Notes: a model not told the origin generated them from the letters alone. DNA of 64,000 nt from an uncultured Planctomycetota bacterium (GCA_963823665.1 CAWGMQ010000003.1:1632001-1696000), one strand, 5' to 3'; numbered from the stretch's first letter, positions 3,606 through 46,175 are shown. Made by a program: numbers and translations.

Positions 3606-4004
3606 GACTGGATGCGACTCCATCGGCAGCCGAATGCGGCACGGCTCGGGCGGTGTTCTCGCCTGCGACGTCAAGGATTCGGGACGGGAGGTTGGAGTCA
3701 CTCATCGAGCCCGGTCGAGGAGGGTACCGGTTGGGTGTTATTCGTCAAGACGACGGTATTGCCGCGACGGTCTTCGAGGCTTTCGCCTGGGGGTTGATCG
3801 CGGATATTTTTGTTTCCATCGATCGAGCCGACTTGGGAATGAATCCGGTAACAACCGTTTCGTGCGGAATGAGTCTTGGCTGAATCGAGCTGAACGAACA
3901 CCCTGGTGGTCTTTCCGTGTCCGAAGGAAGGGCGAGACCGCCGCTTTCACCCACCAACAGAGCCGGCACTCGTGCAACCGGGGGCGGGCAGAGGAGAGTG
4001 TCTC

Positions 4005-8279
<4,275 letters not shown>

Positions 8280-24996: not shown

Positions 24997-25032
24997 TGCT
25001 CATCTCACCGTGGTCAGCTACAAACGTAAAGA

Positions 25033-30131: not shown

Positions 30132-31610
30132 TCACGCGAGTCCGCGCTGATCGTTACGAGGCGGCTGTTGCGGGCCCTGCCGAACGTGACGGATATTCCA
30201 CGCGTCCGAAGCTGCGGAGCAATCCGGCGCAGCTCGTCGCTGAATGCCCTGGCCGTTTTCGGCCAGCTCGCCGACGCCCGGATCCTGCGCGACACTTCCC
30301 TGCCCAATTCCTCGAGCATCTCCGTCGGCGACTGCGTCCAGTCCTGCCGGAACCCGCCGAGCTCCGCACTCTCCAAGAGCGCCTGGGCCACGGGTGAATC
30401 CTCGAGCGATGCGCTTGCAGCCTCGCCCCGGTTATCGTGGTAAATCGACAGAAACGTCTCCGCCGGCCAGCCCAGCCCCCGGCCAACCGCCTCTCCAAAT
30501 CGAGCAAAATCCGCCATTCGTGGGAGCTTCGAGGGCTTCACCGTGGGAAGCACCTTCAGCCCGCCCACGATCGCATCGAGCAGCCCTCCGAAGATCGCCG
30601 GATAGTCCGCTCGGAATGCCTGCCAGAATTCGGACTCCGCACGCCGGCTCGTCAGACCGATTGGCGGTGGCTTCAAAAACGCGCACCGGTCGGCCAGATC
30701 GTCCCGGCGGACAAACTCATCAACGCCATTTAATACGACTGCTCGCTCAGCATAGATCGTTCTCCGCTCGTCGTCGGAATAAAGGGCTCGCGCCGAGAAT
30801 CCCCCGCCCGTCGCCAGCCGGCACAAGCTATCCGAAAGCCAGTTGGCCAACACGCTGATGTTGTCATACACCAGCAGCCAGCCGCCAAAAGCCGTGACCA
30901 TCAGATCGCGCGTGCTGCTCGGCTGCGCCAGCAGCGGCGAGGCTTGTGGATCAACCAGCAGTCGAACGACTTTCGCCAGCGTGCTCTTCGCCGACCCCTG
31001 CTCACCGTGGATCGCCAGCACCGGATAGGGCCCTTCGGGCAATAGCGCCGCAGCCAGCCACCCAACCAGCAATCGGAAGTCTGCTTCGGTAAGGTTCACA
31101 TACGCTTGCAGCCGCTCGATCGAGCCCTCGCGGCTGGGCGCCGGCAGCTTCAACTGTCCGTCTGGACGCCGGAATCTCACCGTGGGCTTATCAACCACGA
31201 GCCATCCTCGCGCGTTGACCTTCACGGCCCGTCCGCTGTCATCTCCCAGGTCGATGTAGAAGTCCCCTGCTTTCTCGCCGCAGTCGCGGCCCACTCGCAC
31301 GTGCACGGCCGGCACGCTGCGGTCAAATCGCGCGCGGGCCTCGAGCGACGTGATCACGGTTTCGAACTGCTCCAGCCGGCGGCAGCTCTCCGCGCTCGCA
31401 CCGGTAGCTCTCGATCAGCCAGTCGCGAAACCCTGTCGACTTCAGCGCGTAAATCTCTTGCCGGTCGCCGACCGGCACTTGAGCATGCAGCCGTCCGTCC
31501 GCTGACCGGAAGAAACGCGCTGTCGCGGCGACCTTCAAGAGCGCCTCCACCACCACTGCGGACTTCTGCGGTTCATCCGCTCGCGGCTCCTCGATCGACT
31601 CGTTTGCCAT
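30104..31610 (-). CDS. Phage/plasmid-type P-loop ATPase (primase/helicase-associated), frameshift ~31360
   Basis: Walker A HGEQGSAKST, YDN, RALYSD, DLADR, PRMADF; N-terminus MANESIEE in ORF 31323-31823. Confidence 0.75.
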
Positions 31611-31627
31611 GGCATCGCTCCCTGCTT

Positions 31628-32326
31628 TCATCCAGCCCCGCCGGGCGTGAAAACCGGCCCACTCGCGGGAACCTGGAAATTCCGCCGCGGCACCGCGCCG
31701 CGCCTCCCGCTCCGGTCCGGTGGTACCGCCGTATCCGCCTCGTCGACACGCGTCGCGATATCGAGAATCGCCAGCGTCAGCTCGGAAAGCCCCGCGACAT
31801 CCGCCGGCATCACCCAGACCCACACATCACCATGCTGGCCGCTATATCGCGCCCCACGCGGAACCTCGTGTTTCGCCCCGACGTGCAGCCACAAGTGCGC
31901 AGGCTCCCGTCGCGCCGAGCCCGCAACCACTTGCTGATAAACCGCCTGCATCGCCCGGATCTTGTCCGGGCTGGTGACCGTCCCCAGGCTCAGAGTACCC
32001 GTCACGTTCCGCGACGCCCCGATGTTGACCCCGTAAGGCTTCGCCGAAAGCATCGGGATGGTCAGCCTCAGTGTGCTCGTCCCGTTATCCGTAACCTGGA
32101 TCGCCCCCTGGCCAACAACCGCCAGGAATGGAAGATTCGCGGGATTCGCCGCCACCGCCGCCAGATTATCCACCACCTGCTGATACTGCAGCTCGGGCAG
32201 CCTGCTGAGCGTCCGGTGGGCAGTGAACTCAAGCTGCCTGTGCAAACACCCCCCAGCGAACCCCAGCGCGAAAGCACTGTAAACCACTAAAGATAAAAGA
32301 CTTCGTCGTCCCATCCTGGAGATCAT
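31628..32326 (-). CDS. Hypothetical lipoprotein-like protein
   Basis: Signal-like segment with FAGGC lipobox; start uncertain. Confidence 0.6.
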   Translation of the reverse strand: MISRMGRRSLLSLVVYSAFALGFAGGCLHRQLEFTAHRTLSRLPELQYQQVVDNLAAVAANPANLPFLAVVGQGAIQVTDNGTSTLRLTIPMLSAKPYGVNIGASRNVTGTLSLGTVTSPDKIRAMQAVYQQVVAGSARREPAHLWLHVGAKHEVPRGARYSGQHGDVWVWVMPADVAGLSELTLAILDIATRVDEADTAVPPDRSGRRGAVPRRNFQVPASGPVFTPGGAG

Positions 32327-33005: not shown

Positions 33006-33206
33006 ACATTCTTGAATTCTTCGCGCCTTCCCTTGGCGCCTTTGCGACTTTGCATGTGTATATCTTCATACAAACATTCTTGAATTCGTCGCGCCATGCC
33101 TTTGCGACTTTGCGTGAGCCCGTCTCCCCTTTTCCGTTCAATAACCCGGCCCAAATCGTCACTCCCATTCGCGTGAGCTTCTCCTCCCGTGATACCGCCC
33201 ACGCCC
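33006..33206 (+). repeat. Dispersed repeat copy A (internal tandem duplication)
   Basis: CTTGAATTC..CCTTTGCGACTTTGC twice, followed by a segment homologous to 46037-46175. Confidence 0.75.
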
Positions 33207-33269: not shown

Positions 33270-33956
33270 TCAACTCTCGCCTGGAATCCTGCTCTTGCGA
33301 CCCGGTTTCTTCGCCTTCTTCACTCGCTTTTCATCCTCGATCGTATCAACATATTCATCGAGCCAGTCGACACCCCCGCGGAGGTTCATCATGAAACAGC
33401 GAACCTCGATGTCCCAGAGATGTTTCAGAGACTCGAGATCCGGGTTCTTCCCGTAGGAACGCTTGACGATCTCCCGGAATCTCCTGGAGATCGGATCCGT
33501 CTCGCCAGGAGGATACGGGTCGACTCGACGCTCGCGGCAATAGTTGTCGATATCAGCCTTGAGCAAGAACGCCTGGCGGCTGTGATCCTTATGCTCGGCC
33601 TCCAGGTCATAAATGTTGTGGCCGGCATCCGGGTCGTACTTCACGTACGACTGATCAAAAAACTCCGTGTAGGCACCGCAATCGCGGTGCTCGACAACGT
33701 ATACATATTTAATTTGATGGAGGCCCACGGCCAGGACCAGGTGATCGAAGAACGCCTTGTGCCAGGCAGGCATCTGCATGGCACCGGCCGCCGCTCCGGC
33801 CAGGATGAACTGGTCGAAGCGGTTTTCAAGGTTCTCGAAATTCATGAACTTCACCAGATTATCCAGCAACCTCAGGTCCATGCAGCTCAAAAGGAGCACG
33901 TTCTTGCGAGGGGAGGTGTGGGTCGTGCTCTGGTAATCGGCTTGGCTGACGTCCAT
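33270..33956 (-). CDS. Beta-class-like carbonic anhydrase
   Basis: Zn ligands SCMDLR and EHRDCGAY. Confidence 0.78.
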   Translation of the reverse strand: MDVSQADYQSTTHTSPRKNVLLLSCMDLRLLDNLVKFMNFENLENRFDQFILAGAAAGAMQMPAWHKAFFDHLVLAVGLHQIKYVYVVEHRDCGAYTEFFDQSYVKYDPDAGHNIYDLEAEHKDHSRQAFLLKADIDNYCRERRVDPYPPGETDPISRRFREIVKRSYGKNPDLESLKHLWDIEVRCFMMNLRGGVDWLDEYVDTIEDEKRVKKAKKPGRKSRIPGES

Positions 33957-34153
33957 AGATCGGTCCCTGATAGTTTCCCTGTTCTCGTTCACGATCCCCA
34001 CTGCCCGATTGTAAGATAATTTCAATTCGAGGACGGCGCCCGAGTCCTCTCGATTCGCTGTTGGGCGACTTCGAGTTCGTGGGTGGATATCCGGCCGGTA
34101 TTGTGTTGCGATGGGATGCGGTAAGGCTATCATCAACATTAGAATGTGTTCAT

Positions 34154-34213
34154 GCCTGACGAGGCGATCCAGCGGACCCGCCTGCGGCGGGCCGCTGAAC
34201 TTTCGCGTCAAAT
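34154..34213 (+). repeat. attC site (short type)
   Basis: GCCTGAC..CAGCGGACCCGCC/GGCGGGCCGCTG..GTCAAAT. Confidence 0.8.
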
Positions 34214-34231
34214 GGCTTCGGGGGAGCGAGC

Positions 34232-34483
34232 GTGAAAACTGTCGTCGTGGTGCCGATACGCGGCCAGGGCAACGCCTGGAAGGTGGCCGAGCCGTCGGAT
34301 CCGCCCGCCAGGGTGCAAGATCGCGTGGTCACGCTCGAGATCCAGGGCAACGCCGCAGAGGGTTACCACCTCGTGATGAGCCCGGCCGGCTGCTTCACCG
34401 CGGACACTTGGCACGCGAGCGTCGAGGATGCCAAGGCCACCGCCGCGAAACTGTTTGGTGTCCCTCCCCAAGAGTGGTCATAG
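34232..34483 (+). CDS. Cassette ORF, hypothetical
   Basis: GGGGAG RBS after attC; followed by GCCTAAC 34486-34492. Confidence 0.75.
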   Translation: MKTVVVVPIRGQGNAWKVAEPSDPPARVQDRVVTLEIQGNAAEGYHLVMSPAGCFTADTWHASVEDAKATAAKLFGVPPQEWS

Positions 34484-34599
34484 CCGCCTAACCATGACGG
34501 ATCGGAGTCCGCGAAGCCAGACCTCCAATCAATGTACAACAAGCCCGGCGATGACCGCGCAGAGCCCTGAGCATGGGAAACGCTCGGCGGCAGGGTCGA

Positions 34600-34737
34600 T
34601 CAACGATCGGTAAGCCCTGCCGTCTTTATCGCCTGAGGGTTCGCACCGCAGTCGCCACGCAGCACTCCTGGCTTCGCGTGCACCTGATCGAGCAGTCCGG
34701 GCGGCCTTGCATCACTCGTCGCGTGACCATTCGTCAT
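34600..34737 (-). pseudogene. Possible integron integrase relic
   Basis: 45-aa ORF divergent from downstream cassettes containing RPPGLLDQV and AIKTAGLT, resembling IntI segments; no catalytic motifs. Confidence 0.3.
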
Positions 34738-34921
34738 CTTTCTATGTTTTCGTTTGGAATCCCAATTCTGCGTCCGTAGGATCATTTGAAATCGAGGACA
34801 GTGCCTGACTGCTCGGCAGTGTTTCCTGCTCGACGTTGGGCAGCACGTCCGGCGGAATGAGAAAAAACGCGGTTTCTGTCGAATTCTTGTGAGCACACGT
34901 TCAAGCCACACTGATCCCAAG

Positions 34922-35372
34922 ATGAAGCGTCCACTTCGCATCGGCAGCTTGGCGCAGTACATCGAGGCGACGAACTCCGTACGCGACTCATGGATCGGGA
35001 AAGGCGCGTACTTCGACCCCTGGTTCCGTGGGCACACCGACGCCGACTGGGAACTTACTGCTTCTCTGATTCGGCTCGGCCTCGAAGATCACGAGGACGC
35101 GATTCGATCGGAGCTCATTTGATCCACCCCACATCGCTCGCCGCGTCGCGGTTCAGCAGAGCCGATTCACGATTCACGGGACCGCGGCGAACGGAATTGA
35201 GTTGTTAGGGCGGCGGCGGGGTTCGCGTTTACAGAAGTTGGTAATTGACCAGGAAGCAATTGTTAAGGTGCGCGTTGACCTGTACACTGCCGGCATCACG
35301 GACACCAGTGTCTTCCCCGACCTCCAGGGGCTCAGCCAGGAACTCACTCGCTACTTCACGGACGACTGGTAG
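34922..35372 (+). pseudogene. FRG-domain protein cassette with internal deletion
   Basis: N-part WFRGH..WEL..SL.R joined out of frame at ~35121 to C-part RVAVQQSRFTIHG..GIT..SVFPDL.GL; central QHYG/TRLLDW region absent. Confidence 0.72.
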
Positions 35373-35515
35373 CAGAACACGCTTTAAGCTTGCAGGACGC
35401 TCGACGGCAGGATCGCTCAACGATCATTCAGGCATGCGCCGCTGGTCGTGACTCGAGTATCGGGCCGCGGACGCCATATTGTCGGCGGCAGCCACTTTGC
35501 GGTAGTCTCCAAGGT

Positions 35516-35719
35516 ATGAGCGTAGAAGAACTCCAGGCCGCCGTCGCACAGCTCCCCGCTGAGGAGCTCGATCGCTTTTCGCACTGGTTCGAGGAGTTCC
35601 TGGCGGATCAATGGGATCGGCGAATCGAGGCCGATATCCTGGCCGGGCGCCTTGAAGCCGCGGGCCGCCGCGCCGACGAGGACTTCGAAGCCGGCCGCTG
35701 CACGCCGCTCTCGCCGTGA
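35516..35719 (+). CDS. Putative antitoxin
   Basis: 67 aa acidic protein (WDRRIEADI.AGRL) whose stop overlaps the toxin start (GTGA). Confidence 0.75.
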   Translation: MSVEELQAAVAQLPAEELDRFSHWFEEFLADQWDRRIEADILAGRLEAAGRRADEDFEAGRCTPLSP

Positions 35720-35973
35720 ACCACTTCGCCACCCCGGAGTTCTGGTTCCACTATCGCCGCCTACCGGCGGAAACCCGCGACCTGGCTGACCAATGCTTCG
35801 CGATGCTCCAAGCTGATCCGCGCCATCCGTCGCTGCGATTCAAGAAGGTCGGGGATTTCTGGTCTGCTCGTGTCGGTCTCCGCATCCGCGCGCTCGCGAG
35901 GCAGCGCCCCGAGGGCTTGGTCTGGTTCTGGATCGGTCCCCATGATCGCTACGAGCAACTGATCGCTCAATGA
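35716..35973 (+). CDS. RelE/ParE-superfamily toxin
   Basis: F..YRRLP..DPRHPSLRFKK..WSARVG..RAL..WFWIG.H..Y. Confidence 0.78.
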   Translation: MNHFATPEFWFHYRRLPAETRDLADQCFAMLQADPRHPSLRFKKVGDFWSARVGLRIRALARQRPEGLVWFWIGPHDRYEQLIAQ

Positions 35974-36034
35974 ACGACAAGCGGACCCGCCCCAGCGGAC
36001 CCGCTCCGCGGGCCGGCGGTCTGCGGCGTTAGCC
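35969..36034 (+). repeat. attC site, degenerate
   Basis: AATGAAC..AGCGGACCCGC (duplicated)..GCGGGCC..GTTAGCC. Confidence 0.6.
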
Positions 36035-36048
36035 TGCGGGAGGCGCGG

Positions 36049-36414
36049 ATGCTCGGGCTGCTCGAAGTTCTCTGGTGGCATCACTGGTCCTGTCCCCGAA
36101 CCATCGAGTCGGCCGCGCATGACTTCCTCAACGCTCGCAACCCGGAGCGAGTCAGGGCTGTCACGCACGTGGGATCGCGGGCCGCCTGGCCCATTCGCTG
36201 GCCCAACTGGAGGCTCAATCGACCGCGGTCGTAGCCGACACCGCGCGGCGGGCGATCCACGACGTGTGGCTGGCAATCGTCGACGATTACGAGAACGGTC
36301 GATCAAATCTGTCGAGCGCTTATCTCGCCAATGTTCATGCGAGGCTAGCGGCGGCTAGCTCGGGAGTACGCGAGACAGCAGGCGCCAGGCGGCGGCGCTC
36401 CGGGCATCGCATAA
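36049..36414 (+). pseudogene. Cassette ORF, interrupted hypothetical
   Basis: GGAGG RBS + ATG after attC; frame broken at 36234; TAA in next R''. Confidence 0.45.
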
Positions 36415-36506
36415 CCGTCGCTGCAACGGACCCGGCCCGCCGCGGCTTCGTGATACAATCCACGCTCGTGCTCGGTGGGCCGGGCCGCTGAGCTCATGCG
36501 TTAGGG
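36409..36506 (+). repeat. attC site (long type)
   Basis: GCATAAC..CAACGGACCCGGCCC/GGGCCGGGCCGCTG..GTTAGGG; TGATACAAT in the loop. Confidence 0.88.
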
Positions 36507-36523
36507 GGCGGGGGGTCCACAAG

Positions 36524-36775
36524 ATGGTGGATGCATGTCCCAGTTGCGGCGCGCCAGTCGGCCAGCTTCACGAGCCGTTCTGCAACCGGGAGCTGTGTCC
36601 CTTCTGCGGCGACTTCATCACCACTTGCGACTGCATCTTCGAGGTGCTGTCGCTCACGGCCGAGGAGTGTGAGCTCGTCGAGAAGTTCGAGGACGACTCA
36701 GTCCAGCCCCTCCGGGGTATCTGCGACCGCTGGAGCGAAGCAGTTGAAGCCAAGGGGCGGGTTCCGTACGCTTGA
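36524..36775 (+). CDS. Cassette ORF, Cys-rich small protein
   Basis: CxxC, H..C, CxxC, CxC; flanked by attC sites. Confidence 0.75.
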   Translation: MVDACPSCGAPVGQLHEPFCNRELCPFCGDFITTCDCIFEVLSLTAEECELVEKFEDDSVQPLRGICDRWSEAVEAKGRVPYA

Positions 36776-36812
36776 GTCACTGCTTAAGCATCGGCGGCCT
36801 CAGCCGTGACAA

Positions 36813-36872
36813 CCCCTACATTGCGATGCAGCGGACCCGCCTGCGGCGGGCCGCTGATCCTTGTCGTCAGGC
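36813..36872 (+). repeat. attC site (short type)
   Basis: CCCCTAC..CAGCGGACCCGCC/GGCGGGCCGCTG..GTCAGGC. Confidence 0.8.
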
Positions 36873-36891
36873 CTGCACGGACCACGGACAC

Positions 36892-37209
36892 ATGGCAACG
36901 TGGCAATACGAGCTTGTGGACCCGCCCTTCGAACCTCGGGCTCGCGAACTCTGGCTGCAGCACGCTGCAGGGTTCATCATCTTTCAGGATGTTTGTGACA
37001 AGGCGACGGAATGTGCATGGGCTATCACGGCTGGCTCGAAGGTGATTTTGGCAAACATCCAGTCGCGGTATCGCGACCCAGCGAGGGTGATGGCGAGGCC
37101 CAGCCCTGACGAATCGCCGCGTCAGCCCCGGCCCCCGGCGATGCTTTGTGTTAGATTCGTGGCTGCGCCCGGCCAGCCCCTCGCACGCCGGGCGCGGAAC
37201 GCCGCCTGA
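36892..37209 (+). pseudogene. Mosaic/truncated cassette ORF with embedded attC relic (~37104-37175)
   Basis: MATWQYEL..; CCCTGAC..TGTTAGATT relic inside the 3' part. Confidence 0.45.
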
Positions 37210-37307
37210 CCGGCGAGCCAGCAGACAAGCCAGTCGGCTGGCCGCTGTTCTTTAGTACAATCACGGCTCCGCCCGACGGTCGGTCCGCTAAGCTTTGGTC
37301 GTCAGGC
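37204..37307 (+). repeat. attC site (long type)
   Basis: Complementary cores GCCTGAC/GTCAGGC; TAGTACAAT in the loop. Confidence 0.75.
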
Positions 37308-37320
37308 ACCGAGGAAATCA

Positions 37321-37608
37321 ATGTCTCCAGTCGTCCCCGAAGCGTGGAAGCCGCGGCTGCGGCAGTATCTCCGCCAGCGGCGTGGCGAGGAGCGCGACCG
37401 CCTCTCGGCCGATGATTTCCCACCGGGGCTGTGCGTCCTCATCCGCTTCCCCGATGGTTCCCACGTCCTCTTTCGGTATGCGTTCGCCATCCTGGATGAG
37501 GCGGCCGGCGAGGTCATCGTCTTCACGGAGCACTGCGGGTACCATGTATTTCCGCTCGGTGATGCCGAGGTCGAAGAACTGCAATCGTCGGATTCACGGG
37601 TCCGCTGA
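37321..37608 (+). CDS. Cassette ORF, hypothetical
   Basis: GAGGA RBS; FTEHCGYH motif; attC on both sides. Confidence 0.78.
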   Translation: MSPVVPEAWKPRLRQYLRQRRGEERDRLSADDFPPGLCVLIRFPDGSHVLFRYAFAILDEAAGEVIVFTEHCGYHVFPLGDAEVEELQSSDSRVR

Positions 37609-37609
37609 T

Positions 37610-37669
37610 GTCTAATATTGCGATGCAGCAGACACCGCTGCGCGGGGCCGCTGATCCGCGTTGTTAGCC
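37610..37669 (+). repeat. attC site (short type)
   Basis: GTCTAAT..CAGCAGAC..GGCCGCTGAT..GTTAGCC. Confidence 0.78.
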
Positions 37670-37687
37670 GAGGGGGGAAGGTGGACC

Positions 37688-38126
37688 ATGTCGTTCTCCG
37701 AGAACATGGCCAAGGTCGTGGCCGACCAGCTCGCTCGCTTCGTCACCCTCAACACGCATCAACTCGCTGGCCATGTGGCCAACCTCGACTTCTGGGTCTC
37801 TCAGGCCCGGCACGCCTTGGAGGTCATCGACGGCTACGAGCCACGATTCCGCCAGCTCAAGGCGGCGCAAGATCAGTACGTGGCCGAGCACCGGACCGAG
37901 AACCTTTCTGCCCAGCGACCCTGATATCCACGGGTCACCGGACCCGCCACGGCGTGTCGCACATGCGGCTCTGCGTGAGGCCCGTCGCTCGGTTACGGAG
38001 CCGACTTACCGCTTCCTGGTGCGCTGCTGCAACGACGGTCTGATCGCGGAGTCGAAGTTGCGAGCCATCTGCTTTAACCTGGATACCGGCGTCGAGTCCG
38101 CAGACATTCGTCGAAGACGGGGCTAA
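37688..38126 (+). CDS. Cassette ORF, hypothetical (frameshift ~37900)
   Basis: HQLAGHVANLDFW; stop TAA inside R'' GGCTAAC. Confidence 0.7.
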
Positions 38127-38181
38127 CGTTGCGATCCAGCGGACCCGCCTCGCGGCGGGCCCCGGAACTGGAGCTTCAGGC
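38121..38181 (+). repeat. attC site (short type, mutated R')
   Basis: GGCTAAC..CAGCGGACCCGCC/GGCGGGCC..TTCAGGC. Confidence 0.75.
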
Positions 38182-38189
38182 GGCGCGAA

Positions 38190-38579
38190 ATACACCCTCA
38201 CGAGGCGGCGACAATTCGAGCATTTGTATCTCCGTCGCGTCGAGAGCGATGGCTCGGCCTCCTGGCATCGGCGAAGCGGCGTCGCTCGTTCCTCGGCCGA
38301 CTGAATCACTGCCGAGACATTGATGAACGATATGCCACGCCGGTTCCCTCGAGCGCCAACATCGCCGCAGTGCTCGGTTCTCATGGCGCACCGGAGACTT
38401 GCTACGTCCTCTCCGATATCCCGACGATAGACGGCCGGGAGTTACCCCTCGATGAGGCCATCGATCAGGTCGAGTTGGCCATGTGGGGAACACTCATCAG
38501 TTGCGTTCCCGGTCGCCTCGCGTACTACTATGATGAGTGTGGCGCTCGACGCTGGCTGCTACAGCGATCGACCGTTTGA
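38190..38579 (+). pseudogene. Duplicated cassette ORF copy 1 (start codon reads ATA)
   Basis: Collinear with 39812-40201; about 11 substitutions in 390 nt by hand count. Confidence 0.8.
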
Positions 38580-38672
38580 CCCGGTGCTGCAGCGGACCCG
38601 CACGCCGCGGCGGCTTCTGGTACAATCGACAGCGGCTCGGGCGGGCCGGTCCGCTGAGCTTCGCTCTTGGAA
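38574..38672 (+). repeat. attC site (long type)
   Basis: GTTTGAC..CAGCGGACC/GGTCCGCTGAG; TGGTACAAT in the loop; R' degenerate. Confidence 0.78.
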
Positions 38673-38834
38673 GGTGATAACTATGCATGCGTGGGCGAGG
38701 CGAAACCTCGACGTCACTTACTATGCTCGATGGCTCAATCCGTATGCCCAGCATCGGTGACTTGGTCAAGTCTATCGAGTGTCGTGGGCTGGGCCTTGGG
38801 TCTCCTCGAAGCCGGCGGATTCGAGCTGGGGCGA

Positions 38835-38892
38835 GCCTGACGAGGCGATGCAGCGGGCCCGCTCCGCGGACCGCTAAATTCCGTCGTTAGGT
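38835..38892 (+). repeat. attC site (short type)
   Basis: GCCTGAC..CAGCGGGCCCGC/GCGGACCGCTA..GTTAGGT. Confidence 0.8.
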
Positions 38893-38908
38893 TCAGCGGA
38901 GGTGAGCG

Positions 38909-39313
38909 GTGGCGCGACGCTGGAAGTTGTGGGTGATCGGGATCTCCGTCGCCGCTACCGCCGTCCTCCTGGGGTGGTGGGCGACCGGTAAGGTCCTAGC
39001 TCCTCCCCTGAGACCGGAGAACTTCAACCAATTGCGGACCGGGATGCCCCAGTCCGAAGTAGAAGAGTTGCTCGGCGGTCCGCCCGGCAACTACGGCCAC
39101 GGCGGTGAAGCGATGATGACGGACGAAGGGTTCCGCAGTCCGCCCGGGTCGGTCCAGCGGATCTGGTGCGATGACAAGAACAGGCTCGAGCTGTACTTCG
39201 ACACCCGGGCGCGATTGGTCGGGTACCACAAGCGGGCGGGCTATACCCAGTCCCCGCCCGACGGATTCTTGGCTCGTCCGTGGCAGTCGAGTCGACGATT
39301 CTTGGGGCTCTGA
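38909..39313 (+). CDS. Cassette ORF, membrane-anchored SmpA/OmlA-like domain
   Basis: GGAGGT RBS; TM then F..LR.GM...EVE.LLG.P. Confidence 0.72.
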   Translation: MARRWKLWVIGISVAATAVLLGWWATGKVLAPPLRPENFNQLRTGMPQSEVEELLGGPPGNYGHGGEAMMTDEGFRSPPGSVQRIWCDDKNRLELYFDTRARLVGYHKRAGYTQSPPDGFLARPWQSSRRFLGL

Positions 39314-39348
39314 CCAGAGCGACGTCGGGCCTGACCTTGGCGTTAGCC
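39308..39348 (+). repeat. Internally deleted attC
   Basis: CTCTGAC..GTTAGCC, only 41 bp. Confidence 0.55.
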
Positions 39349-39361
39349 CGCGAGGGCACCG

Positions 39362-39748
39362 GTGAGACGTTCTCGAAAGGATAGCCGACGCCGCATCACC
39401 ATCGATGGCGTGGTCTACCGCTATCGTGTCTCTCCCAACAATGGCTTCATCACACTCACCGCGAAACCGAAAGGTTTCCGCGGGCAATTGCTCTCGGTCA
39501 CCTACGGCTACCACGACGATTGGGTGCCAGTCGGCGGCGGGGCTTTTACCTCAGGCGGTCACCGCCTCATACTGCCGCGTGTGGTGCGCCAGGCGATACT
39601 CGAAGGGCTGCGTCGAGGCTGGGATCCGATGGCATCAAAGCCGGGTGTATTCCGGGTGCATGATGGCGACAGCTTGCCCCAGGAAGACGAATGGCCCCGC
39701 TTCACTTCAGACCGGTCAACCTCGAAGCCATCGGGTGGCGTGCGCTAA
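39362..39748 (+). CDS. Cassette ORF, hypothetical
   Basis: RRITIDG..YRYRV..ILPRVVRQAI..GWDP. Confidence 0.75.
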   Translation: MRRSRKDSRRRITIDGVVYRYRVSPNNGFITLTAKPKGFRGQLLSVTYGYHDDWVPVGGGAFTSGGHRLILPRVVRQAILEGLRRGWDPMASKPGVFRVHDGDSLPQEDEWPRFTSDRSTSKPSGGVR

Positions 39749-39803
39749 AACTGCGGTCTAGCGGACCCGCCTGGCGGCGGGCCCCTGATCTGGGACGTTC
39801 GGC
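39743..39803 (+). repeat. attC site (short type)
   Basis: CGCTAAA..AGCGGACCCGCC/GGCGGGCCCCTGAT..GTTCGGC. Confidence 0.72.
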
Positions 39804-39811
39804 GGCGGAAA

Positions 39812-40201
39812 ATGCACCCTCACGAGGAAGCGACAGTTCGAGCATTTGTATCTCCGTCGCGTCGAGAGCGATGGCTCGGCCTCCTGGCATCGGCGAAGCG
39901 CCGTCGCTCGTTCCTCGGCCGACCGAATCACTGCCGAGACATTGATGAGCGATATACCACGCCGGTTCCCTCGAGCGCCAACATCGCCGCACTGCTCCGT
40001 TCTCATGGCGCACCGGAGACTTGCTACGTCCTCTCCGATATCCCGACGATAGACGGCCGGGAGTTACCCCTCGATGAGGCCATCGATCAGGTCGAGTTGG
40101 CCATGTGGGGAACACTCATCAGTTGCGTACCCGGTCGCCTCGCGTACTACTATGATGAGTGTGGCGCTCGACGCTGGCTGCTACAGCGATCGACCGTTTG
40201 A
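39812..40201 (+). CDS. Duplicated cassette ORF copy 2, hypothetical
   Basis: 129 aa intact, GTLISCVPGRLAYY. Confidence 0.8.
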   Translation: MHPHEEATVRAFVSPSRRERWLGLLASAKRRRSFLGRPNHCRDIDERYTTPVPSSANIAALLRSHGAPETCYVLSDIPTIDGRELPLDEAIDQVELAMWGTLISCVPGRLAYYYDECGARRWLLQRSTV

Positions 40202-40294
40202 CCGTGTGCTCCAGCGGACCCGCCCGCCGCGGCGTTTCTGCTACAATCAAGGTTCCGCCCGGCGGACCGAACCGCTAAGCTTTGGTCGTTAGGT
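40196..40294 (+). repeat. attC site (long type)
   Basis: GTTTGAC..CAGCGGACC..ACCGCTAAG..GTTAGGT; TGCTACAAT in the loop. Confidence 0.8.
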
Positions 40295-40311
40295 GGCAGA
40301 GACTGCAGGCC

Positions 40312-40929
40312 ATGAGTGATCGAATCGGCGTCGCAACGATCTGCTTGCACAGTAGCTCTGCCATCTATTTGATCGCGGGCTTGGCCTTTCTCGGCTATTC
40401 GCGATTGCCAGCTCAGCCAACGAACCTGCCCTCGGAAGCAGGGTTGGTAGGCTGCATTACCTGCCTCACATTGGCTGCGGGCATCGAGCTGGTGGCTCGT
40501 GGCCTCCGGCGCCGAAGGTATTGGGCATGGGTCGCCGGCGTGTGCATCCTCACGCTCTACGTCCCAACTGTGTTCTTGCCCCTCGGGGCCCTAGGGCTCT
40601 GGGCCCTCCTGACGCCAGCAACAAGAGCCTTGTTCGGCGTCGGACCATTGACCTCGATATCCAGGCGTCCCGGATCGGTGTCCATGACAACCGTCGCGTT
40701 CCGCCTGCTCCTTCTAACAATCGCCTTGACCGGCGTCGCGGTCGCTTACGTCCATTTATCGGGCGTAGGCATGCCACCGTATTCGCCAGTGCCGGACCCT
40801 TCCGAACTCGAGCGGATTCACCGTCTCGTGGGCCTCGCCTTATTCGCGGTCGCTGCGCTCTCCGCCGCCTTATCGATCGCGGCTCTAGCCGCCGTTATAT
40901 TGGTCCGATATCGTCGTCGGCCCCCCTGA
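40312..40929 (+). CDS. Cassette ORF, multi-pass membrane protein
   Basis: Several hydrophobic segments; stop inside R''. Confidence 0.7.
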   Translation: MSDRIGVATICLHSSSAIYLIAGLAFLGYSRLPAQPTNLPSEAGLVGCITCLTLAAGIELVARGLRRRRYWAWVAGVCILTLYVPTVFLPLGALGLWALLTPATRALFGVGPLTSISRRPGSVSMTTVAFRLLLLTIALTGVAVAYVHLSGVGMPPYSPVPDPSELERIHRLVGLALFAVAALSAALSIAALAAVILVRYRRRPP

Positions 40930-40984
40930 CCCGGCGATCCAGCGGACACGTCTGTTGCCCGGCCGCTGATCTTTAGCGTTAGCC
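40924..40984 (+). repeat. attC site (short type)
   Basis: CCCTGAC..ATCCAGCGG/CCGCTGAT..GTTAGCC. Confidence 0.82.
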
Positions 40985-40987
40985 GCC

Positions 40988-41385
40988 ATGGGAGAACCCG
41001 TGCAAGGTTCGAGCGCTGTCGAGGTAGTAATTGAGTACTGGCGCCTCATGGGCACCAATGACTTTGCTGCCGTCGGTGCCGTGCTGGCGCCCGAGTTCGT
41101 CCTCGAGTGGCCGCTGTCGCGCGAGCGCATTCGCGGGGCAGAGCGTTTTGCCCGGATGAATGCGGAGTACCCTGCCCATGGCCGTTGGTCCTTCACGGTC
41201 AATCGCTTGGTTGGCGGTCAGTCGGAAGCGGTCTCCGACGTCACGGTCACCGACGGAGTGCAAACCGCAAGGGTCATATCGTTCTTCGAGGTCAGCGGCG
41301 ACAAGATCACGCGGCTGGTCGAGTTCTGGCCCGAGCCGTATGAACCGCCTGCCAATCGGCGCATCTCGTGGAGCGCATGCAATGA
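40988..41385 (+). CDS. SnoaL-like / NTF2 family protein (1-nt loss near 41360)
   Basis: WP.S.ERIRG..EYPA.GRW.F..EFWPEPY; the likely natural stop TGA lies in R'' CAATGAC. Confidence 0.82.
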
Positions 41386-41483
41386 CCCGCGCTGCAGCAG
41401 ATCCGAACCGCCGCCGAGCTTTGTGGTAAGATCGACGCGATGCGAGGCCCGGCCTGCCGGGCCGCTGAGCTCCGGCGTTACGC
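41380..41483 (+). repeat. attC site (long type)
   Basis: CAATGAC..CTGCAGCAG..GCCGCTGAGC..GTTACGC; TGGTAAGAT in the loop. Confidence 0.75.
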
Positions 41484-41498
41484 AGCAGGGTCTGGCTG

Positions 41499-41840
41499 AT
41501 GCAACGGTTCCTGTTTGAATACATCGAGTTGTTCTCCTTCATCGGCGCCGGCACTCCGGAGGAGCCTGGCGGGGACTTCACCATGTACTGCTGGATCTCG
41601 GCGCCGGACAAGGCGGCTGCACTGGCATGGGGGTACGTCCTGATCGGCGACTACTGCAAGGCGCGATACGCGCACTCGGCAGACGGCCATCGGCACGACG
41701 GATCGCCGATCGAGGAGGGAGAGATCGTCGAAGACCCCGGGGTACTTGCTGCTGCCGTGCATTGGGATATTCCTGCATGCCGCGTCGGTGAGGTCCCCGA
41801 ATGGCGCGAGCCGTGGCGGTTATCCAACACCGGGAGATAG
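41499..41840 (+). CDS. Cassette ORF, hypothetical
   Basis: 113 aa, starts 16 nt after R'. Confidence 0.65.
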   Translation: MQRFLFEYIELFSFIGAGTPEEPGGDFTMYCWISAPDKAAALAWGYVLIGDYCKARYAHSADGHRHDGSPIEEGEIVEDPGVLAAAVHWDIPACRVGEVPEWREPWRLSNTGR

Positions 41841-41845
41841 GCCAA

Positions 41846-42235
41846 GTGAAGCGCACGTGGACGATCATTGGGGTAGCCGATGTGGCCGGCAGCTTCAAAT
41901 GGTACCAGTCGCTCTTCGGCCAGCCGGAGATGCGTCCCGCCCATGACGACTTCGGGCAAATCCTCGACTCGGATGGCACGGTCTTGCTCTGCCTTCACGC
42001 GTGGGGTGCCCACGAGCATCCCTCCTTGATGAGCCCCGATCACGGGAAGCCTGGGAATGGCCTCCTCTTGTTCTTCCGTGTAGACGATTTCGACATGGCC
42101 CTGCCAAGGGCACGGGCTCTCGCCTCTCAGCTCGAAGCGGAGCCCCACGTGAACCCGAACACAGGAACCATGGAGTTCTCGCTCCGAGATCCAGACGGGT
42201 ATTATGTCACGATTAGTGCGCTCTCTGCGGCCTGA
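41846..42235 (+). CDS. VOC/glyoxalase family protein
   Basis: VADV..S..WY, LFFRVDDFD, EFSLRDPDGY; followed by half attC GCCTGAC 42230. Confidence 0.85.
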   Translation: MKRTWTIIGVADVAGSFKWYQSLFGQPEMRPAHDDFGQILDSDGTVLLCLHAWGAHEHPSLMSPDHGKPGNGLLLFFRVDDFDMALPRARALASQLEAEPHVNPNTGTMEFSLRDPDGYYVTISALSAA

Positions 42236-42275
42236 CCACTCGCTCAATCGCACCGGCGCATCCTGGTTCATTCAG

Positions 42276-42734
42276 ATGACACAGGTCCGTCCTTCTAGCC
42301 TGCTGCTGTTCACCTTGGCGATATGTGCCGCGGGGTGCCGGAGCGCACCGGACCCGGACCCCCTGCCCCATACCAGTAGCGTTCGAGGTATCAAGGCGAG
42401 GTACTTCGACCCGACGACGAAACAGAAGCTGGAATTCGACGTACCGCGTAGCCATTGGGTTCCGATCATCTCGGCGATGAGGCCGAACCGTTCCGACCCG
42501 CAGCCGGCGGACTGGATGGTCCTCGGCGAACTGCGGATTACCCAGTTGGATGGGAGTCCGTTTTTCGTGGGCATGTATTCCATCCGAAGCGGGGAGGGGG
42601 CGTTCTCGGCGGGCGCGAGCTTCGAGAAGCGGTTATACTACAGGGGCGGGAGTACGCCCGACCTCGTCCGCGCCCTGAACGCCGCCTATGCGCAGTTCAG
42701 CGGCAAGCGAGGCGATGCGACGGATGCGAAATAG
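42276..42734 (+). CDS. Cassette ORF, putative lipoprotein
   Basis: Lipobox AAGC after a hydrophobic stretch. Confidence 0.7.
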   Translation: MTQVRPSSLLLFTLAICAAGCRSAPDPDPLPHTSSVRGIKARYFDPTTKQKLEFDVPRSHWVPIISAMRPNRSDPQPADWMVLGELRITQLDGSPFFVGMYSIRSGEGAFSAGASFEKRLYYRGGSTPDLVRALNAAYAQFSGKRGDATDAK

Positions 42735-42738
42735 CCCA

Positions 42739-42789
42739 GTCTAACGAGACGCTGCAGCCGATCCGCCTGTCGGCGGGCGGTCGTTACCA
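42739..42789 (+). repeat. attC site, shortened
   Basis: GTCTAAC..CTGCAGCCGATCCGCC/GGCGGGCGG..GTTACCA. Confidence 0.7.
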
Positions 42790-42848
42790 GGCAGAGAGAG
42801 ATACGAGGAGCGCACGCAGTAACCCGCGCCACAGATGAGAGGGTTGAG

Positions 42849-43205
42849 ATGGCGAAACACTTGCACAAAGGCGACGAGACACGGCGTCGCTGGAAGATTA
42901 TCGATGCCTCGCGGTCTGGTGACGCGAGCCTGCTGCCGCAGCTCCTCGCCCGCCTCGACGGCGGCGAGACCTACGATAATAGGCGCCATATCGTCCGGGC
43001 ACTCGGCAACATCGGCGGACCGCGATCCGAGGCCAAACTTCTTGAGTTGCTCGGCAGCGAGCGCGGGCTTATCCTCGGTGATATCGCTCGGGCTCTCGGC
43101 GAAATCGGCTGTCATCGAGCCGCCAATCCGCTTGAGAGTTTGCGCACGCACGAATCCGAGTGGGTTCGCCAGAATGTCACATTTGCGCTTCGACGGCTCT
43201 CATAG
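42849..43205 (+). CDS. Cassette ORF, HEAT-repeat protein
   Basis: VRALGNIG, ARALGEIG, WVRQN..FAL. Confidence 0.8.
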   Translation: MAKHLHKGDETRRRWKIIDASRSGDASLLPQLLARLDGGETYDNRRHIVRALGNIGGPRSEAKLLELLGSERGLILGDIARALGEIGCHRAANPLESLRTHESEWVRQNVTFALRRLS

Positions 43206-43208
43206 CAT

Positions 43209-43240
43209 GGCTAACAATGCGATGTCGGAACTTGTCAGGC
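43209..43240 (+). repeat. Internally deleted attC
   Basis: GGCTAAC-AATGCGATG..GTCAGGC, 32 bp. Confidence 0.5.
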
Positions 43241-43302
43241 GTGGACGCGGCCCTCAAGCGCACGCCCAAGGGCCTTACAGGTGAAGGCCCAAACGGGAGC
43301 AG

Positions 43303-43854
43303 TTGATGGCGTTATCCGACGACGACCTCCGGCGTAGTTTCGAGGCCTTCGAGAACCGCAAACGATATCCAGTGCTCGCACCCAGCGTCTTCGCTGGCAT
43401 CGGCGACGAGTCGGTCGAGCAGGCGATCCTCGATTTCGTCGAGATGAAGGTTGGTCGCAACTCGAAGCGCCAGTACAAGATCGTGACGGCGCTCCCATTC
43501 GGCATTCAAGCCGTTTACACAACCTACTTCCTTGATGCCGAGGTCCGCAATGGCGGCTTCAACCAGTACTTCTGGAATTCCACCGGTCAATTTGCAATCG
43601 AGGCCTTGGACGGACTTCGCTTCTTCGGCGCTACTGATCACGCGAGACTCCTCGAGGGCGCAGTTCAGACTTACATGCGAGAGGCACCCATTCTCACGCG
43701 ATTCCGCATGCGCAACACACTCAAGGCTTTCAGCACGTCGTACAAAGCTACCAGTCTCACCGAATTCGACCAACCGTGGTACCGGTTTCCGTCAATTAGC
43801 CCGCTGCGCGTCAGCCGAATTCGCGCCGAGCCAAGCCTCTTCTCCGCAAGATAG
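43303..43854 (+). CDS. DUF4375 (DMP19-like) protein
   Basis: LDAEVRNGGFNQYFWNS motif. Confidence 0.82.
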   Translation: MMALSDDDLRRSFEAFENRKRYPVLAPSVFAGIGDESVEQAILDFVEMKVGRNSKRQYKIVTALPFGIQAVYTTYFLDAEVRNGGFNQYFWNSTGQFAIEALDGLRFFGATDHARLLEGAVQTYMREAPILTRFRMRNTLKAFSTSYKATSLTEFDQPWYRFPSISPLRVSRIRAEPSLFSAR

Positions 43855-43969
43855 CACTGCCCGCGGGCGTACAAAGCGCCGCCGCTAACATGCGGATATG
43901 CTGGAGTCGCGGGTCAAGCTAGTATGGGAGTTGTTCGCGGATGTGCCGCCGGACACCTTGCCCACGGAC

Positions 43970-44022
43970 GGCTAACGAGCCGATCCAGCGGACCCATGGG
44001 CCGCTGATCTGGGGCGCTACGG
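43970..44022 (+). repeat. attC site (short type)
   Basis: GGCTAAC..ATCCAGCGGACCC/GGGCCGCTGAT..GCTACGG. Confidence 0.72.
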
Positions 44023-44038
44023 GCGGGAGGTTCACCCT

Positions 44039-44464
44039 TTGCGGATCACGCTCACTCGCTTCACCTCCGGGCTGCTTCGCGTCCTGCTTACGCCGATCGT
44101 CCTACCGATCAAGTTGTTGAGCGCGGTGACGGGGCGGGGCAAGAAGCCGGCTTATGCGAGCACCATTGCCGGCGATCCGCTCGCGTACTCCGGCGACAGG
44201 CCCGTCCTCATCGCCGTCTGGGCATCATGGGCGGGGGTGTGGCGTGCAGCAACCGAGCAGGTCGTCGAGCAATTGCGCGGCGAGTTCGCCGGCAGTTGCG
44301 AGTTCGCGTATGTCGAGTGCGACAGCAGCACCATCAAAGACGCCTATCGTGCCGATGTCGTGCCGGTCCTGATCTTGCGGCATCGGGGTCACGAGTTGGC
44401 CCGCTTCGTCAACACGCTTGAGGCCGCTAGAGTACGGCAGGCGATCGCAGAAGTTGCCGCCTGA
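44039..44464 (+). CDS. Cassette ORF, thioredoxin-fold protein lacking CxxC
   Basis: PVLIAVWASWAGVW, VVPVLIL..G.E..RF; GGAGG RBS. Confidence 0.7.
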   Translation: MRITLTRFTSGLLRVLLTPIVLPIKLLSAVTGRGKKPAYASTIAGDPLAYSGDRPVLIAVWASWAGVWRAATEQVVEQLRGEFAGSCEFAYVECDSSTIKDAYRADVVPVLILRHRGHELARFVNTLEAARVRQAIAEVAA

Positions 44465-44557
44465 CCTGGCGCCGCACTGGCCCAGGCCCGCCGCGGCGAC
44501 TTTCGCGGTATCACGGCTTTGCTCCGCGGGCCTGGCCGCTGAGCTTGCTTGTTTGAC
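44459..44557 (+). repeat. attC site (long type)
   Basis: GCCTGAC..CCAGGCCCGC/GCGGGCCTGG.CCGCTGAGC..GTTTGAC. Confidence 0.78.
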
Positions 44558-44575
44558 AGCAGCGGGGCGAGTCAC

Positions 44576-45097
44576 ATGCGGATCCGGAAGGCGAGTGAGT
44601 CAGATGCGGAGGCGATCACGGCCGTACACATCGCTTCGATGCGGGAGGCGTATCGTACGCTCGTACCGCCCGAGGCGCTCGCGGGATTCGACGCGCAGGA
44701 CCGGACTCAGCGGTGGCGTGAGGTTCTCGCCGAGGGAACATCGACCACCCTGCTCGCGGAAGCCGGCGGCGAGCCCTTCGGCTTCGCCAGCTTCGGGAGG
44801 TGCCGGGATGAAGACATCTCGCCGGGGGCGGTCGGCGAGGTGATGGCCATCTACGTCCGCCCTGATGCCTGGGGCCAAGGCGTCGGTAGGGCGCTGCTGC
44901 GCGAGGCGCTCGATCGGCTGCGCAGTGACGGATTCGCCGAGGTGTCGCTATGGGTGATCGAGGCGAATCGGCAAGCGATCGAGTTTTACGAGCGGTTCGG
45001 GTTCCTCCGCGATGGCTCGCTTCGCCGCCATGAGATGCTCGGGACTCCTACGGTCATCATTCGGATGCGGTTGCGGTCGGGTATGGATACCGTCTAA
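44576..45097 (+). CDS. GNAT family N-acetyltransferase
   Basis: IYVRPDAWGQGVGRAL, N..AI.FYE..GF; stop inside GTCTAAC. Confidence 0.9.
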   Translation: MRIRKASESDAEAITAVHIASMREAYRTLVPPEALAGFDAQDRTQRWREVLAEGTSTTLLAEAGGEPFGFASFGRCRDEDISPGAVGEVMAIYVRPDAWGQGVGRALLREALDRLRSDGFAEVSLWVIEANRQAIEFYERFGFLRDGSLRRHEMLGTPTVIIRMRLRSGMDTV

Positions 45098-45099
45098 CA

Positions 45100-45467
45100 C
45101 TCTCGGATTGCTGGTTCTACTACTGGTCGTCGCCGCCCCAATAGCCTGGTTCGCCTCGGAGTTCCAGGATCGGCGCTGGCTGTGTCTCGCCTTGGGTACC
45201 TTGACCATCCTGCTCTCCTTCGGCGTCGCGGCCCTGGTCGGATCGCTGGAGCGGTTCAATTCCAACGCCTGGTTCGGTCGCGCCACGAAGGAACTGATCG
45301 ACGCCGCGGTCACTGAACTGGAGGCAGGCAACCCGGCTCGGGTTCTGCGCTCGCTCAAAGACTTGCAGGGGCAATACACGCCCACCTACGAGAACCGAGC
45401 GCGATACGATATGCTGGTGCAGGAAGCGGTGAAGGAGATGCGATCGCCGGAGGGAAAGGCCCACTGA
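45100..45467 (+). pseudogene. Membrane protein cassette lacking its start (fused to the previous R'')
   Basis: Coding-like TM segment begins directly after GTCTAAC; stop inside CACTGAC. Confidence 0.55.
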
Positions 45468-45612
45468 CATCGCGATTCGACAAAGCTCACCCTCCCGGCC
45501 ACCACGAGTTGATCGGGGTCGGGCACTCTTGCTTCGGTGTCGGCGATCAGGCGGCGATCGTGGACAACCTGTTCGCCAATATCCAGAGCGTTCGGCACCG
45601 AGCGAGCAGACA

Positions 45613-46011
45613 ATGAAAATCTGGCAGCTAGCCATCACGCTGATCGTCTTGATCGTCTTGCGTGAGGTGTCCGGAAACCTCCTGATGCGACTTACGGGGT
45701 TGGCTGTGCTGGCCAATTTCGGGGGGCTGGCCATCGGCTCGTTCTTCTCCGGATGGCTGGCCGGTGCAATCAGCGAGCTCGGTCCTTCCCGTGGCCAGCT
45801 CTGGAGCTTGGCCGCGCTGGGTGTCATCGCAGCGATCGGGATTGGTTTCATCCAGGGTGCGAACTTTCTGGCGGTGGCCGTGGTATTCATGGTGCTGATC
45901 AACATACCACTGTCGTACGGTTGCCTACTCCTCGGTGCCCACGTCGCGGAGCCCCGCACAAAGATCCAGCCGCCGCCTCTAGAAGAGGATAGCCTCGGTT
46001 CGGACCCTTAG
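45613..46011 (+). CDS. Last cassette ORF, membrane protein
   Basis: About 4 TM segments; preceded by GTTCGGC 45590. Confidence 0.65.
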   Translation: MKIWQLAITLIVLIVLREVSGNLLMRLTGLAVLANFGGLAIGSFFSGWLAGAISELGPSRGQLWSLAALGVIAAIGIGFIQGANFLAVAVVFMVLINIPLSYGCLLLGAHVAEPRTKIQPPPLEEDSLGSDP

Positions 46012-46036: not shown

Positions 46037-46175
46037 CTTGAATTCTTCGCGCCCTCCCTTGGCGCCTTTGCGGCTTTGCGTGATCCCATCTTCCCTGTTT
46101 CGCTGTGCTTCATTCCGGCCCGCATCTTCACTCCGATTTGCCTGATCAACTCTTCGCGCGATACCGCCAAAGCCC
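46037..46175 (+). repeat. Dispersed repeat copy B
   Basis: 3 mismatches over 46 nt with 33011-33056 plus weaker homology with 33146-33206. Confidence 0.75.

Follow-up and report, generated by a model that had tools for sequence, protein, structure and literature searches.

Integron cassette arrays in which no integrase is found (CALINs) are common, with 279 and later 2961 such elements counted, and they also occur in genomes without any integrase gene (intI) (PMC4889954, PMC9024848; here and below, papers are cited for their accessible text). Cury et al. left open whether CALIN genes are expressed and how CALINs originate (PMC4889954). We analysed a 64,000-nucleotide stretch of DNA (the window; G000:C3:1632001–1696000) from an uncultured planctomycete, whose own assembly, G000, comprises 16.46 Mb and is 91.9% complete. 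The window carries an array that resembles described CALINs: attC recombination sites cluster in one orientation among small cassettes, and no intI is nearby (PMC4889954, PMC9024848). The best overall explanation, which we consider probable, is that this is a CALIN built by an integrase that has since been lost, that it is decaying, and that most of its long attC sites likely still act as promoters. There is little doubt about the first of these elements, that the array is a CALIN relic.

The row of about 25 integron gene cassettes is real. It contains 14 full-length attC-like sites spanning 34154–44557 (10.4 kb), all co-oriented and falling into the two size classes recognized in an earlier note on this DNA: eight short sites (53–61 bp) and six long ones (98–104 bp). 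About 12 further remnants or sites of other classes bring the total to about 26. The bottom strands have the canonical anatomy of R boxes, unpaired spacers of 5–6 nt (4 nt in three long sites), L boxes and two extrahelical bases. Most sites come after a stop codon or overlap one, with a start codon ~10–27 nt further on. The earlier note had ascribed this placement to every site, which does not hold for the first site (after an inverted gene), for the site at 43970 (after no gene) or for the cassette 3′ of the site at 38121, which is without an ATG.

In the eight short window sites the inner stem is 88% paired and the R box 66% paired; their covariation is not significant, and the folding of single sites is modest when set against shuffled sequences (z from −3.3 to +0.2). 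Over 148 aligned matches of the attC family, 157 double changes are seen against 64 in shuffled alignments, a level reached by 0 of 500 shuffles, in an alignment that was fitted to the model and includes a few opposite-strand duplicates. A strict rule-based scan for attC sites recovered only two, so that the sites were placed by anchors and covariance models. Because these models were built from the 14 window sites, independent support comes from their match to the intI-adjacent arrays of relatives and from the family covariation. The best model score in the window outside 34–46 kb is 11.7 bits (E = 0.51). Further clusters in G000 are matched on contigs C7, C11, C10, C4 and C6, and the attC family is present in 28 of 37 family genomes and in other Planctomycetota, so it is not the lineage-specific set that had been suggested.

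No IntI-like match below E = 0.1 occurs in the window, in agreement with the earlier note, and a genome-wide search found no IntI in G000, where the best score against TIGR02249 is 112.6 bits for a cut-off of 265. With the IntI of a relative as query, G000 and G001, the sole congener in the comparison, yield only partial matches of 30–57% without the IntI-specific middle. The IntI cut-off is passed by 21 of the 61 genomes searched. The same attC family adjoins intI in six relatives (G021, G010, G014, G003, G011 and G033), with intI divergent from the cassettes in four and in tandem with them in two. The cassette at 39342–39797 corresponds, crossover to crossover and at 85% identity, to the second cassette of the intact integron of G021; its attC is canonical in G021 and degraded in the window. 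This homologue is an indirect sign that such sites may be recombined by IntI. Three more arrays of G021 are headed by a broken intI, indicating that in-place loss of intI occurs in the family, and intI fragments are also present in G015 and G018. At the head of the window array, the set of intI, the attachment site attI and the cassette promoter Pc was not found: there is no intI, and only attI-like ends are present. The absence of intI, together with a cassette order that differs from that of the congener, supports the proposal that this is a CALIN in a planctomycete. The features of the array are as follows (window coordinates, strand; ORF, open reading frame).

33270–33956 (−): gene resembling carbonic anhydrases, probably the first cassette in inverted orientation (PF20393, E = 5e-5, below cut-off); 93% to G001, where it lies in the array
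34106–34133 (+): sigma70-like consensus match 5′ of the first attC, no excess over chance (1 versus 2.4 expected)
34154–34213 (+): short attC, cores GAC/GTC
34232–34483 (+): cassette ORF, 83 aa, no family
34486–34616 (+): site of a third class, ~130 bp, its ends resembling R boxes; other arrays of G000, G001 and G021 have homologues
34803–34895 (+): site with an R″-like start and attI-like 3′ end; homologue in G008
34922–35373 (+): broken cassette in two pieces (34922–35122 and 35245–35373), weak PADLOC PDC-S15 match (E = 1.4e-5), presumably FRG-domain-like
35126–35210 (+): non-canonical hairpin site, 3′ end like the attI ends of relatives; pattern found once in G000
35372–35433 (+): remnant of a third-class site, 3′ half
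35516–35973 (+): probable toxin–antitoxin pair, small acidic ORF and ParE-like ORF (PF24732, E = 0.0014, below cut-off); common to G001
35969–36034 (+): short attC remnant, rearranged
36409–36506 (+): long attC, AAC/GTT intact; extended −10-like box with TG at 36451 and TACAAT at 36454
36524–36775 (+): cassette ORF, 83 aa, Cys-rich, no family
36813–36872 (+): short attC, R′ GTC
37204–37307 (+): long attC, cores GAC/GTC; TACAAT at 37256 without TG extension
37321–37608 (+): cassette ORF, 95 aa; common to G001 at a different rank
37610–37669 (+): short attC, R″ AAT
37688–38126 (+): cassette ORF in two frames, the frameshift maybe an assembly error
38121–38181 (+): short attC, crossover G lost
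38175–38666 (+): copy 1 (start codon lost) of a duplicated cassette, whose two gene bodies are near-identical and whose attCs diverge
38574–38672 (+): long attC, R″ GAC, R′ destroyed; extended −10-like box, TACAAT at 38621
38835–38892 (+): short attC, R″ GAC
38909–39313 (+): cassette ORF, 134 aa, weak BamE-like match
39308–39348 (+): collapsed attC remnant
39342–39797 (+): cassette (ORF 39362–39748), end-to-end homologue of the second cassette of the intact integron G021:C3
39743–39803 (+): short attC, decayed relative to its G021 homologue
39797–40288 (+): duplicated cassette, copy 2 (ORF 39812–40201)
40196–40294 (+): long attC, R″ GAC; extended −10-like box, TACAAT at 40242
40312–40929 (+): membrane-protein cassette ORF, 205 aa
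40924–40984 (+): short attC, R″ GAC
40988–41386 (+): SnoaL-like cassette (PF12680, E = 2.6e-11); common to G001
41380–41483 (+): long attC, R″ GAC; extended −10-like box, TAAGAT at 41427
41499–41840 (+): cassette ORF, 113 aa, own attC deleted
41846–42235 (+): glyoxalase/VOC cassette (PF00903, E = 1.1e-7); common to G001
42230–42270 (+): long attC, truncated; whole in its G001 homologue
42739–42789 (+): attC remnant, right arm deleted
42849–43205 (+): HEAT-repeat cassette (PF13646, E = 4e-13); common to G001
43209–43240 (+): collapsed attC, 32 bp; collapsed in G001 too
43303–43854 (+): DMP19-like cassette (PF14300, E = 1e-19)
43883–43939 (+): doubtful attC-like remnant, no homologue found
43970–44022 (+): short attC, R′ GCT
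44039–44464 (+): thioredoxin-like cassette, matches below cut-offs
44459–44557 (+): long attC, R″ GAC; box TATCAC at 44509 (last T lost)
44576–45097 (+): GNAT acetyltransferase cassette, reaching no resistance-family cut-off
45092–45098 (+): lone R″ box fused to the following gene, attC deleted
45099–45467 (+): membrane-protein cassette, start lost by fusion; common to G001
45613–46011 (+): last cassette ORF, membrane protein; common to G001

The array itself is an ordinary element of a known kind, to which the locus adds a directional erosion of the core triplets and a promoter-like box in the long loops. Both of these, and the heavy decay of the array, had escaped the earlier note. The core triplets AAC and GTT are both intact in 11 of 50 sites in G000 and G001 (2 of 14 in the window, 5 of 16 elsewhere in G000 and 4 of 20 in G001), compared with 77 of 95 sites in IntI-bearing genomes. 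The most changed of the well-conserved positions is core position 3, which falls from 0.93 to 0.56 on one arm and from 0.94 to 0.61 on the other while most positions of the attC stem stay above 0.8. The main change is from GTT to GTC, on both arms and almost only before AGG: C occupies position 3 in 24 of 31 boxes in AGG context and in 3 of 34 in other AG contexts (18/23 versus 3/29 in the first set; 6/8 versus 0/5 in held-out G001 sites). GTC in AGG context is found elsewhere in 3 of 3 boxes in G008, in 2 of 18 and 0 of 14 in genomes with intI remnants and in 2 of 167 in IntI-bearing genomes; the change is also seen in G015 and in 2 of 73 metagenome sites. Among the R″ boxes of TGA type, 15 of 19 are in-frame stops. 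Position 3 shows no covariation between the arms, either in resident sites (p = 0.51) or for own cassettes (p = 0.69), which argues for mutation and not for a new specificity. We are confident that the erosion of the cores is real mutation.

A very-short-patch (VSP) type of repair would produce T-to-C changes restricted to TWGG context, as is observed here. All 12 genomes counted are poor in GTTAGG. Relative to the reversed word it stands at 0.079 in G000 and 0.087 in G001, within a range of 0.062–0.215, and so is not specially depleted in these two; this speaks against an artefact of assembly and favours a bias of the whole family that lost selection has unmasked. The words CTAG, TAGG and TTGG are under-represented and CCAG is over-represented in these genomes. 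Vsr also acts on sites without the first C, and G000 and G001 encode three and two Vsr-like DUF559 proteins, respectively. Judged from sequence context, a VSP-type cause is a tentative attribution, on which opinion could almost equally fall either way. For the integrase IntI1, GTC on both partners lowers recombination 150-fold (PMC2811028), and by analogy locking would be expected mainly between two eroded sites. As most sites have drifted at a base that the enzyme needs, the array is likely to be frozen. Several points weigh against this account of the erosion. With GTC on one partner alone, IntI1 recombines at the wild-type level (PMC2811028), so an eroded site on its own may still be functional. 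Of the 95 sites in IntI-bearing genomes used for comparison, 78 are from G021, and kin are not independent. The Pfam Vsr family (PF03852) is found in neither G000 nor G001 and is present in three IntI-bearing relatives.

A TAnnAT box lies in the loop of five of the six long window sites, in four of them with a TG extension, ~45 nt before the crossover and aimed at the next gene. In a loop-blind scan anchored on the stems only (76 matches, giving 68 distinct loops), TGnTAnnAT occurs in 31 of the 68 loops, against one on the other strand and a mean of 0.2 (maximum 2) in shuffles. A(−11) and T(−7) co-occur (32/36 versus 3/32) while the two middle bases vary. Outside the motif, loops within the motif class (0.51) are not more similar to one another than loops of different classes (0.48). 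The bases that are fixed are the ones that sigma70 reads. The host RpoD retains the −10 and extended −10 contact residues, aligning to E. coli Q437, T440, R441, H455 and E458, of which we take H455 and E458 to be contacts. Contact residues of sigma are described in PMC8407463. Among loop-blind sites, the box is retained in 9 of 11 from the integrase-less genus and in 21 of 52 others (p = 0.02), a comparison of non-independent sites that is suggestive only. We therefore lean slightly towards the box working as a promoter for the next cassette, a prediction made from sequence. Several findings stand on the other side: no −35 box accompanies the motif at these sites in a consensus scan; the box is missing from 37 of the 68 loops; in other family genomes the hexamer is in register in 15 of 42 loop-blind long sites and missing from 27; a second long attC subfamily mostly lacks it; and motif enrichment 5′ of host genes rests on three matches versus one.

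The array of G001 stands at the same locus with other cassette content and order, as expected of a fixed chromosomal locus with variable cassettes (one congener compared), and its head is an attI-like end, the 13-mer that ends the attI of G026. Besides the carbonic-anhydrase-like gene, the two arrays share eight blocks of at least 100 bp. Five are collinear (toxin–antitoxin, SnoaL, glyoxalase, HEAT and the last gene) and three are displaced, so gene order is not invariant between the two. At four-fold sites G000 and G001 differ at 73 of 459 positions in shared array genes and at 264 of 887 in flanking genes, the opposite-frame ORF 31106–32290 being excluded from the pool. The shared array genes are thus half as diverged as the flanks, which implies exchange or a common supply after the species split. 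In all eight shared genes third codon positions differ more than first and second positions, which fits purifying selection on the cassette proteins. About 16 kb of non-cassette genes, absent in G000, lie between the G001 array and its right flank (L088:3000–20000, G001:C9).

The earlier note had also argued for circular cassettes from a match between the 5′ end of each cassette and its own downstream inverse core. The four core pairs that it quoted are in the sequence and match at 6, 4, 4 and 5 of 6 bases. Over the 18 scoreable window cassettes, the score of 66 of 108 is at chance level (63.0 when permuted, p = 0.23), so this argument does not carry. The same test is strongly positive in the fresher arrays of G021 (56 cassettes, 281 versus 262, reached in 0 of 20,000 permutations), indicating that it has power; it is weakly positive in G001 (13 cassettes, p = 0.02) and flat in G010, G014 and G003 pooled (11 cassettes).

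We propose that cassettes were inserted and reordered here by an IntI, up to some time after the array DNA was last shared with the congener lineage, and that the genus would then have lost intI. Deletions have since collapsed sites, and on both arms the core triplet has moved from GTT to GTC. The cause may be a family-wide T-to-C bias of VSP-repair type, no longer purged by selection for recombination. Should an integrase return, excision between neighbouring eroded sites would still be poor. The extended −10 motif seen in the long loop would start a transcript ~33 nt before the crossover. As this start lies past the left arm, the mRNA would be without the full hairpin, and downstream genes would be readable without Pc. 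A bolder extension, which we regard as doubtful, is that after integrase loss such arrays, until then a means of shuffling cassettes, became fixed islands that express their own genes, in which repair bias locks the cassettes and clocks the time since the loss while loop promoters are preferentially kept.

The history of the integrase could be read differently. Points that weigh against a relic left by a lost integrase are that intI could be unassembled, because G000 is incomplete, that the own-core signature is at chance in the window, and that many junctions of shared blocks lie at microhomologies and not at G|TT, which indicates that part of the order change arose by deletion and not by integrase. 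An array still served by an integrase, encoded in the unassembled 8% or transient on mobile DNA, would fit assemblies only 91.9% and 84% complete (G000 and G001), a cassette order unlike that of G001 and shared cassettes less diverged than their flanks; with intI missing from both genomes, the array contig-internal between housekeeping flanks, so few sites with both triplets and about 12 sites collapsed, we judge it quite improbable. It is less improbable, yet still unlikely, that intI was never at this locus, the array having grown at a secondary site through an integrase whose gene lies elsewhere, or having been detached by a rearrangement. Both routes are among those listed by Cury et al. 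(PMC4889954); neither G000 nor G001 has a trace of intI at the array head, and G000 has several scattered small clusters. The attI-like end at the G001 array head and the arrays headed by intI fragments in G021, G015 and G018 speak instead for loss in place.

The loop motif, for its part, may be an inherited sequence of one attC lineage, or have a role in folding or strand choice, without promoter activity. This is a real possibility, as the motif is confined to one long subfamily and has no −35 box, and as there are two alternative loop states whose linked inheritance alone could give the co-occurrence of A and T. It sits less well with the equal likeness of the loop remainder within and between classes, with the fixation, on one strand, of only the bases relevant to sigma70, and with the retention of the box in the integrase-less genus. 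For the cores, the split of rpoC into two ORFs in the window makes indel errors likely, and one could ascribe the GTC/GAC cores and the frameshifts to artefacts of base calling, for example at a methylated motif; the unremarkable GTTAGG counts of G000 and G001, the same change in G008, G015 and metagenome sites, and the in-frame stops formed by most TGA-type R″ boxes make that very unlikely. Finally, the two changes are complementary and frequent, as they would be had the genus used a variant integrase preferring GTC cores with which its sites co-evolved. Without covariation at position 3, and with the change depending on the following bases, this is hardly credible, and a GTC-specific integrase was rejected on these grounds. 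Loss of the integrase followed by mutational decay remains the explanation that we prefer.

Several further observations concern attC sites. The duplicated cassettes at 38175–38666 and 39797–40288 differ in the 3′ halves of their long attCs, that of the second resembling the site at 37204, which suggests attC–attC exchange at the loop. The third site class of ~130 bp, missed by both covariance models, is represented in the window (34486–34616), at L067:10887–11021 and at L087:11452–11581, in arrays of G000, G001 and G021 and in a metagenome contig. Sites at 34803–34895, 35126–35210 and L280:6196–6286 combine an attC-like start with an end like the attI of relatives, and may be attC/attI hybrids or another class. 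In long attCs at L081:7046–7146, L081:12155–12252 and in L144, one and the same foreign sequence interrupts the R′ box; it is probably an attC-targeting insertion element. A related attC class of 125 bp occurs in arrays (L121–L123, L153, L154 and L182–L184) of a record titled Acidobacteriota. G021 holds ~94 short attCs in several arrays (L077, L094–L099), with one intact and three broken intI at their heads, and these heads share near-identical attI and Pc-like regions. In L083 (G014:C17) and L101 (G003:C14), intI has the same orientation as the cassettes, with an attI-like end 3′ of the gene, unlike the divergent layout of other family members.

The host is a planctomycete, with DUF1501 and PSD1 genes and atlas neighbours mainly from the Planctomycetota. 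MetK relatives at 84–86% are Isosphaeraceae or Isosphaerales (three named among the 120 matches listed), so the host appears to be Isosphaeraceae-like. The array is contig-internal, with ordinary or housekeeping genes on either side. The broken rpoC (two ORFs, 3906–8279) is separated from rpoB by tilS; because of this split, frameshifts in the array may be assembly errors and were not counted as evidence of decay. Three genes for putative endonucleases of the Uma2 family lie at 24262–25764 and 51542–52102, two of them near-tandem. Two further features flank the array.

33012–33118 (+): dispersed short repeat, two tandem copies; third copy at the far end of the array
46038–46085 (+): dispersed short repeat at the 3′ end of the array

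These direct copies bracket the array, their longer form occurring at only these two places in G000 and being absent from the G001 locus; the repeats are not array-specific, as their core word has 31 matches in G000 and nine in G001. Between 32000 and 47500 no Rfam family reaches its gathering score, and a scan of the region for consensus promoters and terminators is not above shuffles. PADLOC gives only weak matches, to 3 of 22 ORFs, so no defence island is indicated.

Planctomycete integrons are better characterized than the earlier note had believed, with integrons and attC models in print (PMC8352920, PMC4889954). The planctomycete chromosomal attCs of Ghaly et al. 2021 (PMC8352920, PMC9176274), compared here by description, are likewise a taxon-conserved, covariance-modelled family; the accessible text describes no promoter or decay analysis. 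In the literature searched, which left most subscription papers and supplements outside, we found neither a fixed loop promoter in an attC subfamily nor context-specific core erosion. On both questions left open by Cury et al. the locus offers a handle, namely a promoter candidate located within a recombination site, and an erosion that is context-specific, can be measured and follows the time since intI loss, being absent with IntI, slight with intI remnants and strong where no trace is left. Old arrays in high-GC hosts may be undercounted where attC finders or PCR primers rely on AAC/GTT. The erosion resembles VSP repair by Vsr and Dcm (PMC2715241, PMC12907096) in its T-to-C change in TAGG context, a likeness of sequence context, and differs in that G000 and G001 are without a PF03852 Vsr. 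Expression of distal cassettes without Pc is described for DAT722 (PMC2945992), for gene-less promoter cassettes (PMC11014356) and for the Pout of a group IIC-attC intron (PMC8876359), and one of the known intra-array promoters bridges an attC in Vibrio. These Pc-independent promoters are single cases, or belong to cassette bodies or introns, whereas the box predicted here has a fixed place in the attC loop of about half of a subfamily.

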